From: Acidobacteriota bacterium
GTDB taxonomy: Bacteria > Acidobacteriota > CAIWXX01
NCBI GenBank assembly: GCA_040755995.1
Contig: JBFMAF010000024.1
Span: 256,001-320,000, forward strand
Direction of reading: 5' to 3'
Length of the DNA: 64,000 bases
Each line of letters begins with the position of its first letter. Within the stretch, counting starts at the first letter, position 1. The notes beneath the pieces were generated by a model. It made no database searches. It was not told where the DNA came from and worked only from the letters and a program-made list of their open reading frames with translations. Shown one piece after another: positions 55,511 to 64,000 of this stretch. The translations under genes were made by a program, and so were the position numbers.

Positions 55511-56203
55511 TCACACATTATGTGCCGAACGCTGTGCCGCTTCAAGAAGCTTGACCTCGGGCAGGGTGGGGTCGAGCATGGAGGCGATCTGAAGATGGGT
55601 GAGGGCATCGTATGGTTGGCCCTGCCGCAACAGGGAGGCTCCGAGCATCGCATGGGCCTCGGCGTCGACAGGAGTTGTCTCGATGCCCACGAGGAGCTCT
55701 CGCGCGGCCGACTTGTGGCGTCTCTTGCGGTACCAGATCTTGCCCAGCAGTGTGCGTGTCAGTCCCGCCTCGGCCGCCTTCAGGCTCGCCGTGGCGGCCT
55801 CGAAGCTCGATTTCAATGCGGCCGACCGCGCAGCCGCCTTCGACTCGGTGCATGCGGTGCAATAGGCCACTAGCGCCCGCAGGAGAAGTGTGTGGGCGTG
55901 GTCTGCGGGCAGCCGATCGAGCACGGGAGTCAACTTGGGCGCCATAGCAGGCTCTTCAGCCAGTATCTCGTAAAGCGAAGATACGGATTCGGAGTGACCG
56001 GGGTCGAGCTCCAGAACGGCGGCGAACTGTTCCAGGGCTCTGTCGTTGCGCCCCTGGAAGTGAGCACTACGCGCTTCCTGCGCCCGTTGCGCCGCTTCGT
56101 TGATCTCGCGGATCTGCCGGGCCTTTCGCACGATCTTCTCTTCGAGCTGGGCGGCCTTGTCGCGGAGGAACCCGGCGATGCGGCTGATCGAATCACGCGG
56201 CAC
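55511..56203 (-). CDS. TPR-repeat protein
   Basis: ALEQFAAVLELDPGH, AEAHAMLGASL..QGQPYDALTHL; overlaps the M48 gene end. Confidence 0.75.
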   Translation of the reverse strand: MPRDSISRIAGFLRDKAAQLEEKIVRKARQIREINEAAQRAQEARSAHFQGRNDRALEQFAAVLELDPGHSESVSSLYEILAEEPAMAPKLTPVLDRLPADHAHTLLLRALVAYCTACTESKAAARSAALKSSFEAATASLKAAEAGLTRTLLGKIWYRKRRHKSAARELLVGIETTPVDAEAHAMLGASLLRQGQPYDALTHLQIASMLDPTLPEVKLLEAAQRSAHNV

Positions 56204-57029
56204 GCTGTCGCCTCCACGCGAGCAGCTCCTTCGTCCGCTGCCGGCTCGCGAATCTGATCAACTCCCGCACGCGATGAGGACCGAACGGGTGCGTGATCTG
56301 CTCTGCCATGAGCATCATGCCCGCCTTCGAGAGAAGCTCGGCCCGATCGAGCTCGTCGGCCTGCTTGAGAAACTCGGCCATGTTCACTTGCGAAGCGAGT
56401 GTCTGCGAGCCGGCCGAGAGAAGCAGCTCCGCCTTGACTGCCGCGGTGATGTCGGCGCACAGGCAGTATCCCAGGGCGTCGCAGGAGTACTCGCAGGCCC
56501 TGACGTACCGCATCAAGAGGGTCTTGGCGGAGAGAGCGAGCGGGATTCTGAGGAGATCCGGGAGCTGCGCGAGCAGGCTGGTGGCCTGTCCGAACAGCAG
56601 CATCATGAGGATGCGGTAGAGCCGGTGGTTGCTCTTGATGTGGCCCAACTCGTGGCCGATGATCGAGCTCATCTGCTCGGACGTGGCGGTGTCGAGGAGC
56701 GATGAGTGGAGCACGATGAAGGTCTCTTCGTCCGCCTGCAGCCCGTTGGTGTATGCATTCATCACGGGGTGGTTGCTCACGTAGATGGTCGGGGGTTCGA
56801 TTCCCAGCAAGCGGCAGTGGCTGGTCAGAGTAGCGTGCAAAACGGGGAACTGCTTTCTCGCGACGCGGACCATTTTCCCGAGCTTGAAGCCCTTGAGCAG
56901 CTTGTGCTGGACGCTGTCGATAGCGGAGATCAGTTTGACGACGATCGGGTGCTGCGACACCCTGGCAAAGGTGCTGGCCTCCTCGGCGTGCCGGTAGTCC
57001 TCGATGTCGATGATCTGCTTGTCAGGCAT
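56193..57029 (-). CDS. M48-family zinc metallopeptidase
   Basis: NAYTNG, IIGHELGHIK (HExxH), EYSCD, THP. Confidence 0.9.
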   Translation of the reverse strand: MPDKQIIDIEDYRHAEEASTFARVSQHPIVVKLISAIDSVQHKLLKGFKLGKMVRVARKQFPVLHATLTSHCRLLGIEPPTIYVSNHPVMNAYTNGLQADEETFIVLHSSLLDTATSEQMSSIIGHELGHIKSNHRLYRILMMLLFGQATSLLAQLPDLLRIPLALSAKTLLMRYVRACEYSCDALGYCLCADITAAVKAELLLSAGSQTLASQVNMAEFLKQADELDRAELLSKAGMMLMAEQITHPFGPHRVRELIRFASRQRTKELLAWRRQRAA

Positions 57030-57222
57030 GAAACCCTAATGAGGCGGGGCCTCAGACCGATGAAGCATGACCCCATGCTCCGTACCCAGGCCGAAGGCCG
57101 GTACCTGTGCCCGCACGCGCACCCGGTCGGAGGCGGATACGGGTACGGGTACAGATTCAGGCCCGTGAAATGCGGCTCGAAAGCCTCTGCTCATTCGCGC
57201 CATGCTCTACGCCTCCGGCTGC

Positions 57223-58626
57223 CTAGTCGTCCTCTGGCGGCTCGGATGGTTCGCCCTTGGCTGGCCGGATCTGGTACTGCTCCATCTTCTTGTACAGATT
57301 CGAGCGGGGGACGTCGATCTGGTTTGCTGTTTGAGATATGTTCCAATCGTTCTCGCGGAGGCGGGTGAGGATGAAGTGTTTCTCGCAGAGGTCGCGGTAT
57401 TCTCTCAGAGTGCGCGCGCCGGACACGTCCAGGATTCCGCGCGAGTTCGGCGGGGCCTTCTGGATCACCCCTTGCAGCATCAGGTCATCGGGGCCGATGC
57501 TGTCACCATCGCTCATGATCAAGAGCCGCTCGACCAGGTTTCTCAGCTCGCGGACGTTTCCGCGCCAGGGCATGGTGCGCATCGTCTGAATCGCATCCGG
57601 ATGAAAGCTCTTGTTTCGAAGGCTGTTCTCCTGGATGTACATCTGCCGAAAATGCTCCACCAGCGGCGGGATGTCATCGGGGCGCTCCCGCAGCGGCGGG
57701 CTCTGGATCGGGATCACGTTGAGCCTGAAATACAGGTCCTCGCGGAAACGGCCGGCCGTGATTTCGGCTTCGATCTCCTTGTTGGTCGCTGCGATGACCC
57801 TGACGTCGATCTTGATTATGCGATTCGCACCGATTCGCTCGATCTCCCCCTCCTGCAGCGCCCGGAGCACCTTTGCCTGCGTCTTCAGGCTCATGTCGCC
57901 GATCTCGTCCAGGAAGATCGTCCCGCCGCTCGCCTGCTCGAACTTCCCGATCTGTTTCTCGAAGGCTCCCGTGAACGAGCCCTTCTCGTGGCCGAACAGC
58001 TCGCTCTCGATCAGCTCCTCCGGTATCGCCGCGCAGTTCACCTGGACAAACGGTTCGGACCTTCGGGTGCTGAGCCGATGGATCTGTCGCGCCACCAGCT
58101 CCTTGCCCGTCCCACTCTCGCCGCGAATCAGGACTGTGGCGTGGGTAGGCGCCGCCTTCTGAATCGTCTCCAGCAGGCGCCGCATAGGGGCGCTCTCGCC
58201 CACGATCCGATATCGATTCTCTTCACGCAATCTGAACCGGCGGTTCTCCCGGGCGAGGCTCGAATGCGACAGCGCGTTGCGGACGGTCAGCAGCAGCTTG
58301 TCACGCTCGAGGGGCTTCTCGAGGAAGTCGAAGGCGCCCTGCTTTGTCGCCTCGACGGCCGTCGACACGGTGCCGTGCCCGGAGATCATGATCACCTCGG
58401 GGGGCTCCGGCGAGGCCACGATTCTCGGCAGAAGCTCCATGCCATCTACCTGCGGCATCTTGATGTCCAGCAGAACGATGTCAGGACGCTCCTCGTCGAT
58501 CATCCGCAGCCCCTCGCCGGCGTCCCGGGCTCCGACGAATACGTATCCCTCGTACTCCAGCACCATCTTCAGCGTGTCTCGAATGCCTTCGTCGTCGTCA
58601 ATCACCAGAATGCGCGGTTTCCCCAT
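57223..58626 (-). CDS. Sigma-54-dependent response regulator, NtrC/NtrX family
   Basis: REC; GESGTGKE; ELFGHEKGSFTGA; FLDEIG; FREDLYFRL; WRGNVREL; Fis-type HTH. Confidence 0.95.
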   Translation of the reverse strand: MGKPRILVIDDDEGIRDTLKMVLEYEGYVFVGARDAGEGLRMIDEERPDIVLLDIKMPQVDGMELLPRIVASPEPPEVIMISGHGTVSTAVEATKQGAFDFLEKPLERDKLLLTVRNALSHSSLARENRRFRLREENRYRIVGESAPMRRLLETIQKAAPTHATVLIRGESGTGKELVARQIHRLSTRRSEPFVQVNCAAIPEELIESELFGHEKGSFTGAFEKQIGKFEQASGGTIFLDEIGDMSLKTQAKVLRALQEGEIERIGANRIIKIDVRVIAATNKEIEAEITAGRFREDLYFRLNVIPIQSPPLRERPDDIPPLVEHFRQMYIQENSLRNKSFHPDAIQTMRTMPWRGNVRELRNLVERLLIMSDGDSIGPDDLMLQGVIQKAPPNSRGILDVSGARTLREYRDLCEKHFILTRLRENDWNISQTANQIDVPRSNLYKKMEQYQIRPAKGEPSEPPEDD

Positions 58627-58907
58627 CAGACCGGTCACCTTTCTTGCGAGCGCAGCGGGAATGAGGGGCCGAGGACTGACTCACACACCCACGGCTCGAA
58701 CACCCCTCATGCCAGCTCCAACCGTACCATGCTCACCAGCACACTTTCAAGCGGAGGCGGGATGAGGTAGCATTAATGTCCTGGGGGGATGTTGAGAAGC
58801 CGGTTTCGCTCTGCTTGCCTGAACCAGGGGGCGTGCCCAGGGAGCGTTCGGCACCAGGCGAGGAGGCGGCCCGGCATTCCGATCGACACCCGGCTAGTCA
58901 CGACTGG

Positions 58908-61649
58908 ATGAAGCAAATGGAAACGGGTCCATCACGCACTCCGATCTTCGTGTTCGATATCTGGGGATGCCGCGGCTCGCGCAATCTGGAGCCGGGGTCG
59001 TCGCGACTGGGCACGCGGACGCCCTGCTACTCCGTCCTCGGCAGGGAAGAGCTCCTCGTTTTCGACGCGGGCCGCGGACTCGCCGCGCTCGGCATCGCGA
59101 TGAAGCAGGGCGTCCGGTATCAGAACGTCTCGCATATTCACCTGCTAGTGAGCCACGCTCACATGGATCACTGGGAGGGGCTCAAGGATGTCGACTGGTT
59201 CTGGCTGAAGGACCGGCCCCTGGAAGTGACGCTCCATGGGCCGTCGGAAGCAGTCGAGGCCGCTCGCGCGGCATTCGCTCATCCGTCCTACGTTCCGCTG
59301 GAACAACTGGCCTCCGGCACCAACGTGCGCTTCGACGTGGATGCTCTGAAGGCCGGAGATGAGCGCGATCTCGGTTCGTTCCGCCTCAAGACGGCGGCTC
59401 TCAACCATTACAGCGGCAGCGGCCCCACCAAACGCATGCTGGACGCACTGGGATTCCGCGCTGAAGGGAAGGATGGGCCCGTCGTTTCCTATGTCTCGGA
59501 TCACGAGCCATCGCCCAGCCATGCCGCGGATGAGGCCCGGCTGGTGACGGGCGCCTCGCTCATCGTGCTCGACGCTCACTATGCGAACATCTCCGAGCAT
59601 TCATACGGACACGGGTCGATCGAGTACGCAGCGCGGATCGCGCGCTCGTATCCGGACACCCTGGTCATGGCCAGCCACATCGGCTCGCTTCTGAGCGACG
59701 AGTCCATCATCGAGTCGGTCCTCCGCCACGCCCAGGGCGTCGCCAATTTCCGGCTCTCGCGCGAGGGGGATTCGTATTTCTGGAACTGGCGGGAGCAGAA
59801 GTTCATCACGCACGGACAGCCCCCAGCCGTCTCCGTCGGATCAGACGGCACACCGAGGCGGCCTTTCCCGAAGGGCGGTCTCGCGACGCCGGAAGACCTC
59901 CATATCCTCAGGCACGAGCTGAAGACCCCGATCAATCAGATCATGGGCTATTCGGAGCTCATCGAGGAGGAGATGGAGGACAAGGGCGAATCATCGTACA
60001 CCGCCGACCTGCGGAAGATCCACAAGGCCTCCCAGCAGCTGCTATACCTGGTCGATCAGATCCAGCTGCCTGACTCGGCCCCCGGCGCGCCGCCGCCGGT
60101 TCCGCAGCATTCAACCGGACTGGAACAGGCGACAGCCGAGATCGGGACCGACGACGAAGCCGCTGTCGCTCTTCCGGCGGATTACGATCAGAATGGAGCA
60201 CCTGGCGAGCACGTGCTTGTGGTCGACGACAACGAGCTGAACCTTGACATGCTGTCGCGACGGCTGAAGGGGCGGGGCTACCGCGTCTCGGTTGCGAGCG
60301 ACGGGCAGCAGGCGTTCGAGAAGGTGAATGCGGACCGGTTCGACGCGATCCTCCTGGATATAATGATGCCCGGCATCAGCGGGCTTGACGTGCTGAAGGC
60401 GCTGCGCAAGACGTATACTCCGGCCGACCTGCCGGTCATCATGGCCACGGCGAGGGATCAGAGCGAGGACATCGTGGAGGCGCTGAAGCTCGGCGCAAAC
60501 GACTACGTCACCAAGCCGCTCGATTTTCCCGTCGTCGTGGCGCGCCTCCGAACCCACCTCTCGCTGAAGAAGGCCAGGGATCGTGTGAACCGCCTGGTGG
60601 AAGGGTTGGAGGTCAGGAATCGATTCATACGAAAAACGTTCGGGCGGTATCTGAGCGACGACGTGGTAGCGAGTCTGCTGGAGAGTCCGGAGGGGCTCAA
60701 GCTTGGCGGCGACCGCCGCGTTGTGACCATGCTCATGGCCGACCTCCGAGGCTTCACCTCGATGACGCATGGGATGAACCCCGAGCTGGTCATGAGAGTC
60801 CTCAACAACTACCTGGGGACCATGGCGCACGTCATCACCAAGCATCGAGGGACAATTGACGAGTTCCTCGGCGACGGCATTCTGGCGCTGTTCGGGGCGC
60901 CGATTCAGGCTGAGGACGACCCGCGGCGCGCCCTCGCATGTGCGCTCGAAATGCAGGTGGCGATCGAGGCGGTGAATGAACACAATGCGGCCGAGGGGCT
61001 GCCGTCGATCGACATGGGCGTCGCACTGAACACGGGCGAGGTCGTCGTTGGCAACATCGGATCAGAGACGCGGGCCAAGTACGGAGTGGTGGGTAGCCAG
61101 GTGAACCTGAGCGGGCGAATCGAGTCGTTCACAGTCGGCGGCCAGATTCTGATGACTGACGCCACACTGCAGGCGGCCGGCCGTGACGTGCACGTGGGGA
61201 AGGCGCTGGCGCTGAACGCGAAGGGCTTCAAGGAACCAGTGCGCGTCTACGAGCTCGTGGGACTCGGCGCGCCTTACAACATCTTCCTCCCGCAGCGGAA
61301 GGACGCGCCGGTCCAGCTCTCGCAGGAGATCCCCGTTCTTTGCTGGGTGCTGAGCGACAAGCTGATCGACACGGATGTATTCGAGGGGTTCATTACCGCA
61401 TTGTCGCCCAGGGGTGGTGAGATGCGGTCTCTGGCCAGCCTGGAGCCTATGACCAACCTCAAGCTCCGCTTTGCCGGTGATCGTGAGAAGGTGCTCGATT
61501 CCGATATCTACGTCAAGGTGACATGTGCCGACGAGACGGCCCACGAACGGCTGAGCTTCCGCTTTACTTCGGCGCGGCCCGATGTGCTCGAATATATCCG
61601 GCAGCTTCGCGAGAACAACGGCCGGTTGCCTGGGGAGCCAGCACGCTAA
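58908..61649 (+). CDS. Fusion: MBL-fold hydrolase + HisKA + REC + class III nucleotidyl cyclase (Cya2-type, probable guanylate cyclase) + PilZ-like tail
   Basis: WGCRGS and SHAHMDH (HxHxDH); RHELKTPINQIMGYSE; REC LLDIMMP; ADLRGFT, TIDEFLGDG, GNIGS..KYGVVGSQVNLSGRIES. Confidence 0.9.
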   Translation: MKQMETGPSRTPIFVFDIWGCRGSRNLEPGSSRLGTRTPCYSVLGREELLVFDAGRGLAALGIAMKQGVRYQNVSHIHLLVSHAHMDHWEGLKDVDWFWLKDRPLEVTLHGPSEAVEAARAAFAHPSYVPLEQLASGTNVRFDVDALKAGDERDLGSFRLKTAALNHYSGSGPTKRMLDALGFRAEGKDGPVVSYVSDHEPSPSHAADEARLVTGASLIVLDAHYANISEHSYGHGSIEYAARIARSYPDTLVMASHIGSLLSDESIIESVLRHAQGVANFRLSREGDSYFWNWREQKFITHGQPPAVSVGSDGTPRRPFPKGGLATPEDLHILRHELKTPINQIMGYSELIEEEMEDKGESSYTADLRKIHKASQQLLYLVDQIQLPDSAPGAPPPVPQHSTGLEQATAEIGTDDEAAVALPADYDQNGAPGEHVLVVDDNELNLDMLSRRLKGRGYRVSVASDGQQAFEKVNADRFDAILLDIMMPGISGLDVLKALRKTYTPADLPVIMATARDQSEDIVEALKLGANDYVTKPLDFPVVVARLRTHLSLKKARDRVNRLVEGLEVRNRFIRKTFGRYLSDDVVASLLESPEGLKLGGDRRVVTMLMADLRGFTSMTHGMNPELVMRVLNNYLGTMAHVITKHRGTIDEFLGDGILALFGAPIQAEDDPRRALACALEMQVAIEAVNEHNAAEGLPSIDMGVALNTGEVVVGNIGSETRAKYGVVGSQVNLSGRIESFTVGGQILMTDATLQAAGRDVHVGKALALNAKGFKEPVRVYELVGLGAPYNIFLPQRKDAPVQLSQEIPVLCWVLSDKLIDTDVFEGFITALSPRGGEMRSLASLEPMTNLKLRFAGDREKVLDSDIYVKVTCADETAHERLSFRFTSARPDVLEYIRQLRENNGRLPGEPAR

Positions 61650-61894
61650 CTCAGTTCATGCGACAGTTGGACGAAGCGGTCGACGGTCGTCGGCTCAGGT
61701 TCGCGGGTGCAGAGGCGATGCAGTCGGATTGCGGCCGTCTCGGACACCAGGCAATCGATTGGCGATCTGTGGTATCCTAGAGGCCGAGCTTCGAAACGAT
61801 CAAGTGAAGGAGTCACTCATTATCACGTCCGCGCTCCCGTGACGTGGGACATCCATCGGCCGATGAGATGAGATCGGCAGGGAGGAAGAAAGAC

Positions 61895-63973
61895 ATGGAA
61901 TCCGTGACACTCGACGATGCCCGGCGCAACGACGTGGTGGCGGCGCTCGGGAAATGCCCGCTCTTCCGCGCGCTCAAGGCTGAGCACTTCCCTCAGATTA
62001 TCAACATTGGTGAGCTCTACCAGTATGATCCGGAGGAGGTGATCATACGGCAGGGAGATCCCTCTGATTCGTTCTTCGTGATTGTGGATGGTGAGGTATC
62101 CGTGAGAGATGCCAAGCCCGACGGCGAGTACATAGAGCTCGGGCGAATGCCCGCGAAGAGCAGCGTCGGCGAGATCGGCCTGTTGTTGGATGAGCCTCGG
62201 ACTGCCACCGTGGTGGCCACTCAGCAGGCGGTGGTGTTGAAGTTCGGCGCGAAGGCCTTCCATGTCATGTTCCAGAAGATCCCGGATTTCGGCGTGGGGG
62301 TTAGCCGCGGGCTGGCCCACCGGCTGGAGCAGGTATCGGGCCGTCGCGTAGCGCTGCCCGAGTACGACACGACGAAGCCGAGGCCCCCGGTCGACGTGCT
62401 CAGCCTGCTCCCCAGGGAGCTGTGCCAGCGCCATCGCATCCTCCCGCTGCAGGTCGATGGGAGTATCGTCACGATGGGGTTCGTGGATGAGCCCAGCACG
62501 CAGGTGATGACCGCCGTTCGCGACCAGCTCGCCAGCATGGACATCAGACCCATGCACATCAACCTCGAGTTCTACAACAAGATCATGCAGAGCTACGTCG
62601 GGCTGGAAGGCTGGGGAGCGCCAGCCGAGGCTGCCCCCGAGGCGCCCCCAGCTGCACGACCTCAATCCAAGTCGCCTCGGCTGGATGGTCTGTTGGAGAG
62701 GGTGGTGGCGGAAGGCGCATCGGATTTGCACGTGTCCGCCGGCCACAAGCCTCACTGGCGCATAGAAGGCGACATGCAGACGATCGTGGACCTACCGGTG
62801 CTTGGCGAGAACGAGGTCTTCGAGCTGCTCCAGCCGGTAATGGAACACAGGCATCTGGACGAGTTCGCGGAGAGAATGGACGCGGACTTCGCCTACGCGG
62901 TGCCCGGCCTCGCCCGTTTCCGCGTCAACATGTACAAGGACAACCACGGGGTCGGTGCGGCTTTCCGTCTGATTCCGTCCAAGGTTCTCACACTCGATCA
63001 GCTCGGCCTCCCCGCAGTCCTCAAGAACTTCTGCGAGGTTCCCAAGGGGCTGATCCTGGTGACGGGTCCGACCGGCTGCGGGAAGTCCACAACCCTGGCC
63101 GCGATGATAGACCACATCATCAAGACGCGCAAGGCACACATCGTGACGCTGGAGGACCCGATCGAGTTCGTTCATCAGAGCGATGCCTGCCTGATCAACC
63201 AGCGCGAGATCGGGGGTCAGGTGCAGAGCTTCGGCAGAGGCTTGCGCGCCGCGCTGCGCGAGGACCCGGACATAGTTCTACTGGGCGAGATGCGGGATGC
63301 AGAGACGATCGCATTGGCGCTCGAGACCGCCAACACGGGCCACCTTGTGCTGGCCACGTTGCACACAAACACAGCCATCACGGCGCTCGACCGGATCATC
63401 GACTCGTTCCCCGGCGACCAGCAACCCCAGATTCAGAGCACGCTCGGGGATGTGTTGAGAGGCGTCGTCGCGCAGATGCTCGTCAAGAAGATCGGCGGAG
63501 GCCGCATGGCCGTGTGCGAGGTCATGGTCGTGAACTACGCCATACAGAACCTCGTCCGCGAGAAGAAGACTCAACAGATCCCCAGCGTCATGCAGACGGC
63601 CAGGGGCATAGGGATGGCACTGCTCAACGACGAGCTTGCGAAGCTGGTGGAGGATCGGAAGATCGAGATGCAGGAGGCCATGAGCAAGGCCATCGACAAG
63701 GACGATCTCAACCGGCGCTTCCGGAGCGGCCTGACGCTCGCCGAGGACCCACCCACCTTCGAGCGGGTCCGGATCATCGCTGTGAGGCCGTCGACTCCGG
63801 CCTCCGAGGCCGGGCTGCATCGCGGAGACTACATCGTGGAATTCGCCGGGAAGCCGACCAAGGAGTACACGGTGGACGAGATTCGAGCCGCCTTCCGCAT
63901 CGATATGCAGCACCAGCTCGGCATCCAGAGGGGTGACAAGCGCCTCAAGATTGTCATGGACATGCGCAAGTAA
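61895..63973 (+). CDS. pilT: PilT-family pilus retraction ATPase with N-terminal cNMP-binding and GspE/PilB-type N-domain and C-terminal PDZ
   Basis: cNMP IIRQGD...GEIGLL..PRTATV; LLPRELCQRHRILPL; ASDLH, GPTGCGKSTT, TLEDPIE, LREDPD...GEMRD, TGHLVLATLHT, AIQNLVRE; PDZ VRPSTPASEAGLHRGDYI; GGAGG SD. Confidence 0.92.
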   Translation: MESVTLDDARRNDVVAALGKCPLFRALKAEHFPQIINIGELYQYDPEEVIIRQGDPSDSFFVIVDGEVSVRDAKPDGEYIELGRMPAKSSVGEIGLLLDEPRTATVVATQQAVVLKFGAKAFHVMFQKIPDFGVGVSRGLAHRLEQVSGRRVALPEYDTTKPRPPVDVLSLLPRELCQRHRILPLQVDGSIVTMGFVDEPSTQVMTAVRDQLASMDIRPMHINLEFYNKIMQSYVGLEGWGAPAEAAPEAPPAARPQSKSPRLDGLLERVVAEGASDLHVSAGHKPHWRIEGDMQTIVDLPVLGENEVFELLQPVMEHRHLDEFAERMDADFAYAVPGLARFRVNMYKDNHGVGAAFRLIPSKVLTLDQLGLPAVLKNFCEVPKGLILVTGPTGCGKSTTLAAMIDHIIKTRKAHIVTLEDPIEFVHQSDACLINQREIGGQVQSFGRGLRAALREDPDIVLLGEMRDAETIALALETANTGHLVLATLHTNTAITALDRIIDSFPGDQQPQIQSTLGDVLRGVVAQMLVKKIGGGRMAVCEVMVVNYAIQNLVREKKTQQIPSVMQTARGIGMALLNDELAKLVEDRKIEMQEAMSKAIDKDDLNRRFRSGLTLAEDPPTFERVRIIAVRPSTPASEAGLHRGDYIVEFAGKPTKEYTVDEIRAAFRIDMQHQLGIQRGDKRLKIVMDMRK

Positions 63974-64000
63974 CTGCTGCGGGCGGCAGGCGAGACGGGG

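Follow-up and report, generated by a model that had tools for sequence, protein, structure and literature searches.

The locus described here raises the question of what a retraction-type pilus ATPase would do with a cyclic-nucleotide sensor and a docking domain of the extension-motor type built into the same polypeptide. The gene occupies positions 61895 to 63973 (plus strand) of a 64,000-nucleotide stretch of contig JBFMAF010000024.1 from an Acidobacteriota bacterium (assembly GCA_040755995.1), which we call the window, and its 692-residue translation contains every motif quoted in a preliminary description of this DNA. That description presented the product as a four-domain chimera. The anatomy held, as translation, Pfam, NCBIfam and an AlphaFold2 model agree on the order CNB-ND1-PilT-PDZ, where CNB is a domain of the kind that binds cyclic mononucleotides (cNMPs); the protein is no one-off construction, however, but belongs to a wide family in which three domains are the basic arrangement. 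As judged from comparison of sequences and modelled structure, the protein combines these four domains with a PilT-type core, a conserved nucleotide pocket and a PilB-derived ND1 that lacks the cyclic di-GMP (c-di-GMP) motif. We predict, at about even confidence, that it is an accessory retraction motor gated by cGMP or cAMP through docking on PilM.

Several lines of evidence place the core (residues 261 to 608; 62675 to 63718) in the PilT family of ATPases and show its catalytic motifs to be intact. It scores 438.8 bits against the NCBIfam model TIGR01420 for PilT/PilU (cut-off, 319.1) and fails the models for PilB (TIGR02538, 135.1 versus 675.65) and GspE (TIGR02533, 157.7 versus 630.25), and inspection of the protein sequence found no Zn-binding CxxC pairs in the core. 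Its best sequence match in the PDB is PilT of Pseudomonas aeruginosa at 355 bits, followed by PilU (233), GspE (133) and PilB (about 100 to 112), and the core of the model ranks the solved structures in a similar way (Z of 37 to 38 for PilT, 37.1 for PilU and about 29 for PilB). The core is 44 to 49% identical to PilT of P. aeruginosa (3JVU/3JVV) and Geobacter PilT4 (6OJX/5ZFQ), with a root-mean-square deviation (rmsd) of 1.5 to 2.1 over about 340 to 350 residues, and its Walker A, Asp box, Walker B and His box are all intact; the protein differs from these PilTs in its added CNB, ND1 and PDZ domains, in having ANTGH for AETGH and in lying outside a pil operon. K397, E420, E424, E465, H483, R343, R358, R455 and R537, which presumably have the roles assigned to them in work on PilT, are invariant in 58/58 aligned members, and H490 is kept in 57/58. 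The single family-wide change, overlooked in the preliminary description, is the replacement of the conserved Glu of AETGH by Asn (N480 here) in 52/58. The PilT motif AIRNLIRE, which is present in the 3JVU alignment, reads AIQNLVRE, as had been claimed, with A, N, L, R and E kept in 55 to 56 of the 58. R555 aligns to P. aeruginosa R294, and PilT R294E of that species interacts more weakly with PilC according to PMC6858323.

The phylogeny of the core likewise sides with PilT and apart from PilB/GspE. A quick tree of 156 rows gave weak support to the deep branches and was superseded by a careful tree of 44 hand-picked core rows, including 17 fusion cores and one annotated PilU row. In the careful tree PilB is separated from the PilT-type cores at 100/100, and the 17 fusion cores form one clade (99/97), which is nested in a group of ANTGH-bearing proteins (99/89) that includes short stand-alone PilTs; this group joins gammaproteobacterial PilT (99/93), whereas the pilB-linked PilT of the same genome lies in a separate clade. 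The five rows with a PDZ domain are a single subclade (100/96). Since both the fusion clade and its PDZ subclade are single, fusion to PilT appears to have arisen once, with PDZ gained once afterwards. Short ANTGH PilTs, close relatives of the fusion clade, occur in Rokubacteria/Methylomirabilota and Syntrophales, where each forms a pair with another gene of the PilT family (loci L078, L084, L087, L098, L108, L115, L125, L129, L133, L135, L138 and L145).

The sensor comprises a CRP-type cyclic-nucleotide-binding domain with its C-helix (residues 8 to 149; 61916 to 62341). Its Pfam cNMP_binding match covers residues 43 to 127 (E 1.8e-18), and the phosphate-binding cassette that had been read at 62168 to 62206, GEIGLLLDEPRTA, corresponds to residues 92 to 104. 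In the alignment to CRP, G92, E93 and R102 of the cassette G92-E93...R102-T103-A104 fall on G71, E72 and R82, T103 on S83, and R143 of the C-helix on R123. The C-helix (62288 to 62341), which holds R143 and S148, forms the junction to the PilB-derived part. Among the rows of the PDZ clade, which are kin and include a few duplicates, G92, E93, R102, R143 and a Ser or Thr at 148 are each present in 87/87 and T103 in 83/87, at an overall identity of about 55 to 65%. The fold is closest to GlxR, Mycobacterium tuberculosis (Mtb) CRP and Clr (Z 17.8 to 18.6, rmsd 2.2 to 2.7, about 140 residues), with the match running through the C-helix to residue 149 to 153. The domain thus shares the cassette G-E...R-S/T, the C-helix Arg and the fold with the CRP family (E. 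coli CRP, GlxR, Mtb CRP, Clr and CgrA), and differs in having no DNA-binding domain, in a C-helix that leads into ND1 and in a Val or Leu at the CRP T127 position (HMMER register). In CRP, S128 reaches the base from the partner subunit (PMC10187061), and a CRP-like pairing of the sensors is plausible here. The RT in place of RS in the cassette does not settle the choice between cGMP and cAMP; it also occurs in the cGMP-preferring CgrA (PMC10187061). The earlier caution that the cassette Thr is weak evidence for cGMP was right, and the adjacent guanylyl cyclase described below lends only local support. We give cGMP an even chance of being the predicted ligand, cAMP a real but lesser one, and both nucleotides or another ligand a small one.

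Canonical PilTs lack an N1D/GSPII domain (PMC11656802); here both Pfam and hhalign place ND1, the alpha-beta subdomain also called MshEN_C or GSPII, between sensor and motor (62348 to 62602). The GspE/PilB-type N-terminal subdomain without an RLG-type MshEN motif, as first described, was borne out: Pfam MshEN (PF05157) matches residues 160 to 219 at 29.4 bits (cut-off, 23.1), over profile positions 9 to 68 of 90, which represent the second subdomain only, and a regular expression found the RLG-type motif in 0/187 rows, whereas the PilB of this genome has two. Sequence matches of ND1 in the PDB are weak (N-domains of PilF and Xanthomonas citri PilB, E 0.011 to 0.9). Residues 139 to 233 align to PilB residues 48 to 137 with an hhalign probability of 96.75, and in this register the C-helix of the sensor coincides with the final helix of MshEN_N in PilB. 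This alignment, together with three CNB-ND1 proteins of a rare kind whose core is that of a PilB, Zn motifs included, supports the earlier proposal that a cNMP sensor stands in place of the c-di-GMP-binding MshEN_N. Compared with MshE, PilB and PilF, the fusion has the same sensor-ND1-linker-ATPase layout, with a homologous ND1 and the junction in register, and differs in its CRP-type sensor, missing RLG motif, PilT core and missing Zn motif. The simplest history, its direction resting on inference, would be that a cNMP domain replaced MshEN_N on a PilB and that the module later moved to a PilT. At one locus (L083:3532-7551, minus strand) a CNB-ND1-PilT gene is followed on the same strand, 99 bp away, by a CNB-ND1-PilB gene. 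These tandem motors bear the same sensor-docking module, and a further cNMP-domain gene lies at 1470 to 2111; the label of the record (Enterobacterales) looks doubtful. ND1 binds GspL/EpsL, a PilM homologue, in structures of GspE and EpsE (4PHT, 2BH1) and has been proposed to bind PilM, according to PMC8389850. The fusion likewise has ND1 but no ND0, as does the form bound to the PilM homologue in that source, and differs in placing it on a retraction-type core, where docking is a prediction.

The remaining parts of the protein are a Pro/Ala-rich flexible linker and the PDZ domain. The linker (residues 237 to 254; 62603 to 62656) is the only part of the AlphaFold2 model, computed from a 58-sequence alignment, with a predicted local distance difference test (pLDDT) score below 50; the mean is 87.1, over four folded blocks. 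T2SSE matches residues 263 to 588 (E 1.4e-48). The PDZ domain, of the HtrA/CtpA-like kind, follows the last PilT helix without a linker (63722 to 63964), and its Pfam match (residues 618 to 686) is marginal, at 27.4 bits for PDZ_6 and 27.7 for PDZ_2 against a cut-off of 27; PDZ chains of DegP and HhoA (E about 1e-5 to 8e-5) and the fold of the model agree with it. All four domain types therefore exceed their Pfam cut-offs, PDZ barely, and each of the profile calls made at the outset passes. PDZ domains hold C-terminal peptides by a carboxylate-binding loop with a known consensus, and the corresponding stretch here, R610-S-G-V/L, is conserved but atypical (R in 49/58 and G in 51/58, the 58 rows including 9 without PDZ). 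The ATG at 61895 is favoured as the start over the GTG at 61844, as M1 is conserved in at least 90% of 58 homologues; a GGAGG lies close 5' of this ATG.

A search with residues 1 to 260 returned, among the 120 matches listed, 83 proteins (self included) with cNMP, T2SSE and PDZ matches, so the fusion is no assembly artefact. Eight more distant proteins of about 590 to 650 residues among those matches have no PDZ, and the source names are Vicinamibacteria and Myxococcales. A motif scan of GTDB genomes gave at least 119 stretches; among the 80 with flanks, CNB, ND1 and core lie in a single open reading frame in 53 and within the locus in 57. By record title, the 57 comprise 19 from Myxococcota, 11 from Acidobacteriota, 8 from Pseudomonadota, 4 from Rifleibacteriota and 3 from Lentisphaerota, plus one each from three other phyla and 9 unassigned, with some titles that look mis-binned; among these flanked loci PDZ is confined to the Acidobacteriota rows. 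Of the proteins examined from the best 150 in a profile search against 50% representatives, 64 bear ND1. Six candidates were scored in each genome of a phylum sample of 400, and 5/400 other genomes have the fusion, in every case PDZ-less, whereas 59 genomes of one family (that of G403) gave 11 strong matches. The comparisons point to a single origin of the CNB-ND1-PilT family, which occurs patchily in uncultured Myxococcota, Riflebacteria, Lentisphaerota and Acidobacteriota and has PDZ as the mark of one acidobacterial subclade. Databases label its members plainly as PilT. A metagenome scan with the N-terminal 260 residues as query found no relative, and viral scans returned generic ATPases only or nothing. 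Members on contigs titled Klebsiella, Enterobacteriaceae, Bifidobacterium and Erysipelotrichia (L089, L100, L119 and L080) are probably mis-binned; L119 and L080 cluster with Myxococcota and Riflebacteria rows in the quick tree. At a Desulfobacteraceae locus (L102), a CNB-ND1-PilT gene lies near one for a 798-residue PilB-type ATPase with an N-terminus that looks GAF-like by eye.

The genome has a canonical pilB-pilT pair and three more PilT-family genes besides the fusion, which is thus the fifth PilT paralogue, as well as pilM followed by pilN- and pilO-like genes (pilM at G000:C55, L069:1471-2541); the fusion is therefore an extra motor. PilT paralogues of Myxococcus xanthus have auxiliary roles according to PMC13584747. 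The gene that ends 245 bp before the fusion on the same strand (58776 to 61649) encodes a metallo-beta-lactamase-fold hydrolase, HisKA, a receiver, a Cya2-type class III cyclase and a C-terminal domain, by Pfam and PDB matches. The cyclase is closest to Synechocystis Cya2 (PDB 2W01, E 2e-73), with which it shares the KYGVVG motif and the specificity Glu at the E488 position, reading TIDEF as in the wild type and unlike the engineered adenylyl variant E488K (6FHT), in which that substitution converts Cya2 into an adenylyl cyclase (PMC5995499). By these motifs the gene product is a metallo-hydrolase fused to a guanylyl cyclase of the Cya2 type, in which the Glu that specifies GTP is present; it differs from Cya2 in that the protein is soluble, with hydrolase, HisKA and receiver in place of CHASE2 and the membrane part. 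The hydrolase domain has no PDB relative at E 0.01, and in 3/16 other loci the hydrolase has a gene of its own, immediately upstream of the cyclase gene; from its fold and this placement we infer that it may be a phosphodiesterase. The C-terminal 110 or so residues have no Pfam match and look PilZ-like by eye. We found no promoter-like or terminator-like site in the gap between cyclase and fusion, where counts equalled those of shuffled sequences. On the other side, a 34-bp gap (its first part at 63974 to 64000) separates the fusion from a gene for a 218-residue cNMP-domain protein (G000:C24:320008-320664) beyond the window end, and in G447 a homologue of it at 40% is encoded some 1.3 kb away from the fusion.

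Beyond this locus, orthologues of the guanylyl cyclase are present in 5/5 PDZ-clade genomes first tested, where they are unlinked and all have the Glu, in just 4/400 other genomes of the phylum sample, and in 41/59 genomes of the family of G403 (the genomes being incomplete). Of 14 further fusion loci, one (G445) stands head-to-head to a receiver gene plus the first part of an adenylyl-type-like cyclase gene, for which reason we rejected this neighbour as a guanylyl cyclase orthologue. Genes for TPR-CNB proteins, present at 2/14 fusion loci and 3/16 cyclase loci, were given low weight as a link between fusion and cyclase, as there are several copies per genome. A fair reading is that the PDZ clade lives in lineages that are rich in cNMP signalling and appear able to make cGMP, and that it sometimes adjoins such genes.

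In the mechanism that we propose, for which ring formation, nucleotide binding, docking and direction are predicted, six subunits would assemble into a PilT-type ring. Binding of a cNMP to the CRP-type domain would reorder the C-helix, possibly in CRP-like subunit pairs, and since the C-helix continues directly into ND1 it would reposition ND1, as is thought to happen with c-di-GMP-bound MshEN_N in PilB and MshE. ND1 would dock on the PilM stator ring, so that the motor ring is recruited to or released from the pilus base, and a docked ring would compete with PilB and canonical PilT for PilC and retract the pilus. The PDZ domain may bind a peptide, either to localise the motor or as a second input. 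The receiver-controlled guanylyl cyclase encoded by the adjacent gene of this genome, with its fused hydrolase, could supply and remove the signal.

Several observations weigh against a cNMP-gated retraction motor, or against cGMP as its signal. The fusion gene lies outside any pil cluster here, no recurring pil neighbour was seen among clusters from 80 loci, and the gene is present in 0/2 closest genomes (same family). N480 takes the position of P. aeruginosa E219 by alignment, and the first Arg of AIRNLIRE is replaced by Ala or Ser in 52/58. S148 corresponds to CRP S128 by HMMER ranges and to T127 by BLAST, and its conservation may be due to the junction of MshEN_N and ND1 instead. The pocket is intact in only 57/70 PDZ-less rows, and some 50%-cluster representatives have a decayed Walker A or His box, so the family tolerates losing sensing and catalysis. 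On the side of the signal, a conserved operon with the cyclase was rejected, since the cyclase profile matched 2/86 loci (the fusion's own and one without a fusion); a specific co-occurrence was not significant (cyclase in 10/11 fusion versus 31/48 other genomes, Fisher p=0.15); the cyclase-cluster neighbour in G445 resembles an adenylyl-type enzyme; and of the five class III cyclases of this genome, three are Lys-type (adenylyl) and two Glu-type. The linkage is thus not conserved, and either cGMP or cAMP may be the signal. CNB-ND1-PilT representatives in which Walker A, Walker B or the His box has decayed (P0268, P0272, P0275, P0319, P0353 and others) are possibly catalytically dead regulators.

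These points bear differently on the alternatives. The loss of Walker A or His-box residues in several representatives that retain CNB-ND1 would suit a cNMP-controlled brake or competitor, a ring that uses ND1 to dock on PilM, obstructs PilB or PilT and does little pulling itself, as would the nature of ND1 as the docking part of an extension motor and the four other PilT-family genes in the genome; we consider this unlikely, however, as the catalytic residues are all kept in the aligned clade, the fusion protein included, and the end branches of the PDZ clade are short to moderate (0.19 to 0.27 in the careful tree). It is slightly less likely still that the protein is the motor of another type IV filament machine, either similar to the type II secretion system (T2SS) or a second pilus, that docks on a GspL-like stator. 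The genome has six PilB/GspE-like ATPases, the solved ND1 complexes involve GspL/EpsL, and the tandem at L083 could be a separate motor pair, but PilT-type cores go with type IVa pili and no recurring T2SS genes lie beside the fusion.

A bidirectional or extension motor, in which ND1 and the Asn of ANTGH let a PilT core assemble pili or the cNMP switches direction, seems improbable to us. Tad and VirB11 motors have NTGH at the ANTGH site, which fits such a motor, but ANTGH is also found in short stand-alone PilTs without ND1, and the core nests in PilT and has no Zn-binding CxxC pairs. Two published points favour it all the same: N1D sets extension motors apart from retraction motors (PMC11656802), and Geobacter PilT adopts both PilB-like and PilT-like ring conformations (PMC6858323). 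Least probable of all, in our estimate, is that CNB is a dimerising spacer or adaptor that binds no cyclic nucleotide, with a constitutive motor; the cassette Arg is lost in 4/5 other fusions of the phylum sample and 13/70 PDZ-less rows are degenerate, but in the PDZ clade the pocket residues G92, E93, R102 and R143 are kept in every row at an overall identity of about 55 to 65%. We therefore continue to favour the gated accessory retraction motor. More tentatively, and with a good deal of doubt, we suggest that a cGMP-gated form would be the first type IV filament ATPase to act in its own right as a receptor for a cyclic mononucleotide. In it, CRP-like pairs of sensors would shift a PilM-docking domain of PilB origin on a PilT ring, fed by the adjacent receiver-controlled cyclase and hydrolase. 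If this is true, then together with the CNB-ND1-PilB tandem sister one nucleotide could set extension and retraction.

All of the component domains are known; new here are the intactness of the pocket, the exact point of the swap, the sister proteins with a PilB core and the adjacent gene for a guanylyl cyclase, which together open the system to direct tests. Literature searches, whose scope left out most subscription journals and supplements, found no description of a PilT fused to a cNMP domain. In the available portion of PMC11656802, direct control of pilus motors by a second messenger is described only for c-di-GMP on extension ATPases, with cAMP acting through transcription. The CNB-ND1-PilT family breaks the rule of N1D as the mark of an extension motor and offers, as a prediction, direct cNMP control of a retraction-type motor. 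A receptor for the cGMP made by Cya2 was still missing in Synechocystis in the available text of PMC10187061, and the fusion is a candidate cGMP receptor other than a transcription factor. With sensor, docking domain and motor in one soluble polypeptide, motor selection by N1D and PilM becomes directly testable.

Further observations concern the signalling genes of these genomes and the rest of the window. The second Glu-type cyclase of this genome (L074:997-3441, minus strand, G000:C9), with domains read from its sequence, combines in a single chain a receiver, a GGEEF domain, another receiver, a Cya2-type cyclase and the C-terminal domain seen in the gene upstream of the fusion; it possibly makes both c-di-GMP and cGMP. 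At L303:4316-6424 and L304:8585-10594, a HisKA-HisKA-receiver cyclase with eukaryote-like adenylyl motifs lies beside guanylyl cyclase and TPR-CNB genes, by its motifs a cAMP/cGMP cluster in these Acidobacteriota. In the window itself, divergent from the cyclase gene, positions 55511 to 58638 (minus strand) encode a sigma-54 response regulator, an M48 peptidase and a TPR protein, all ordinary by Pfam.

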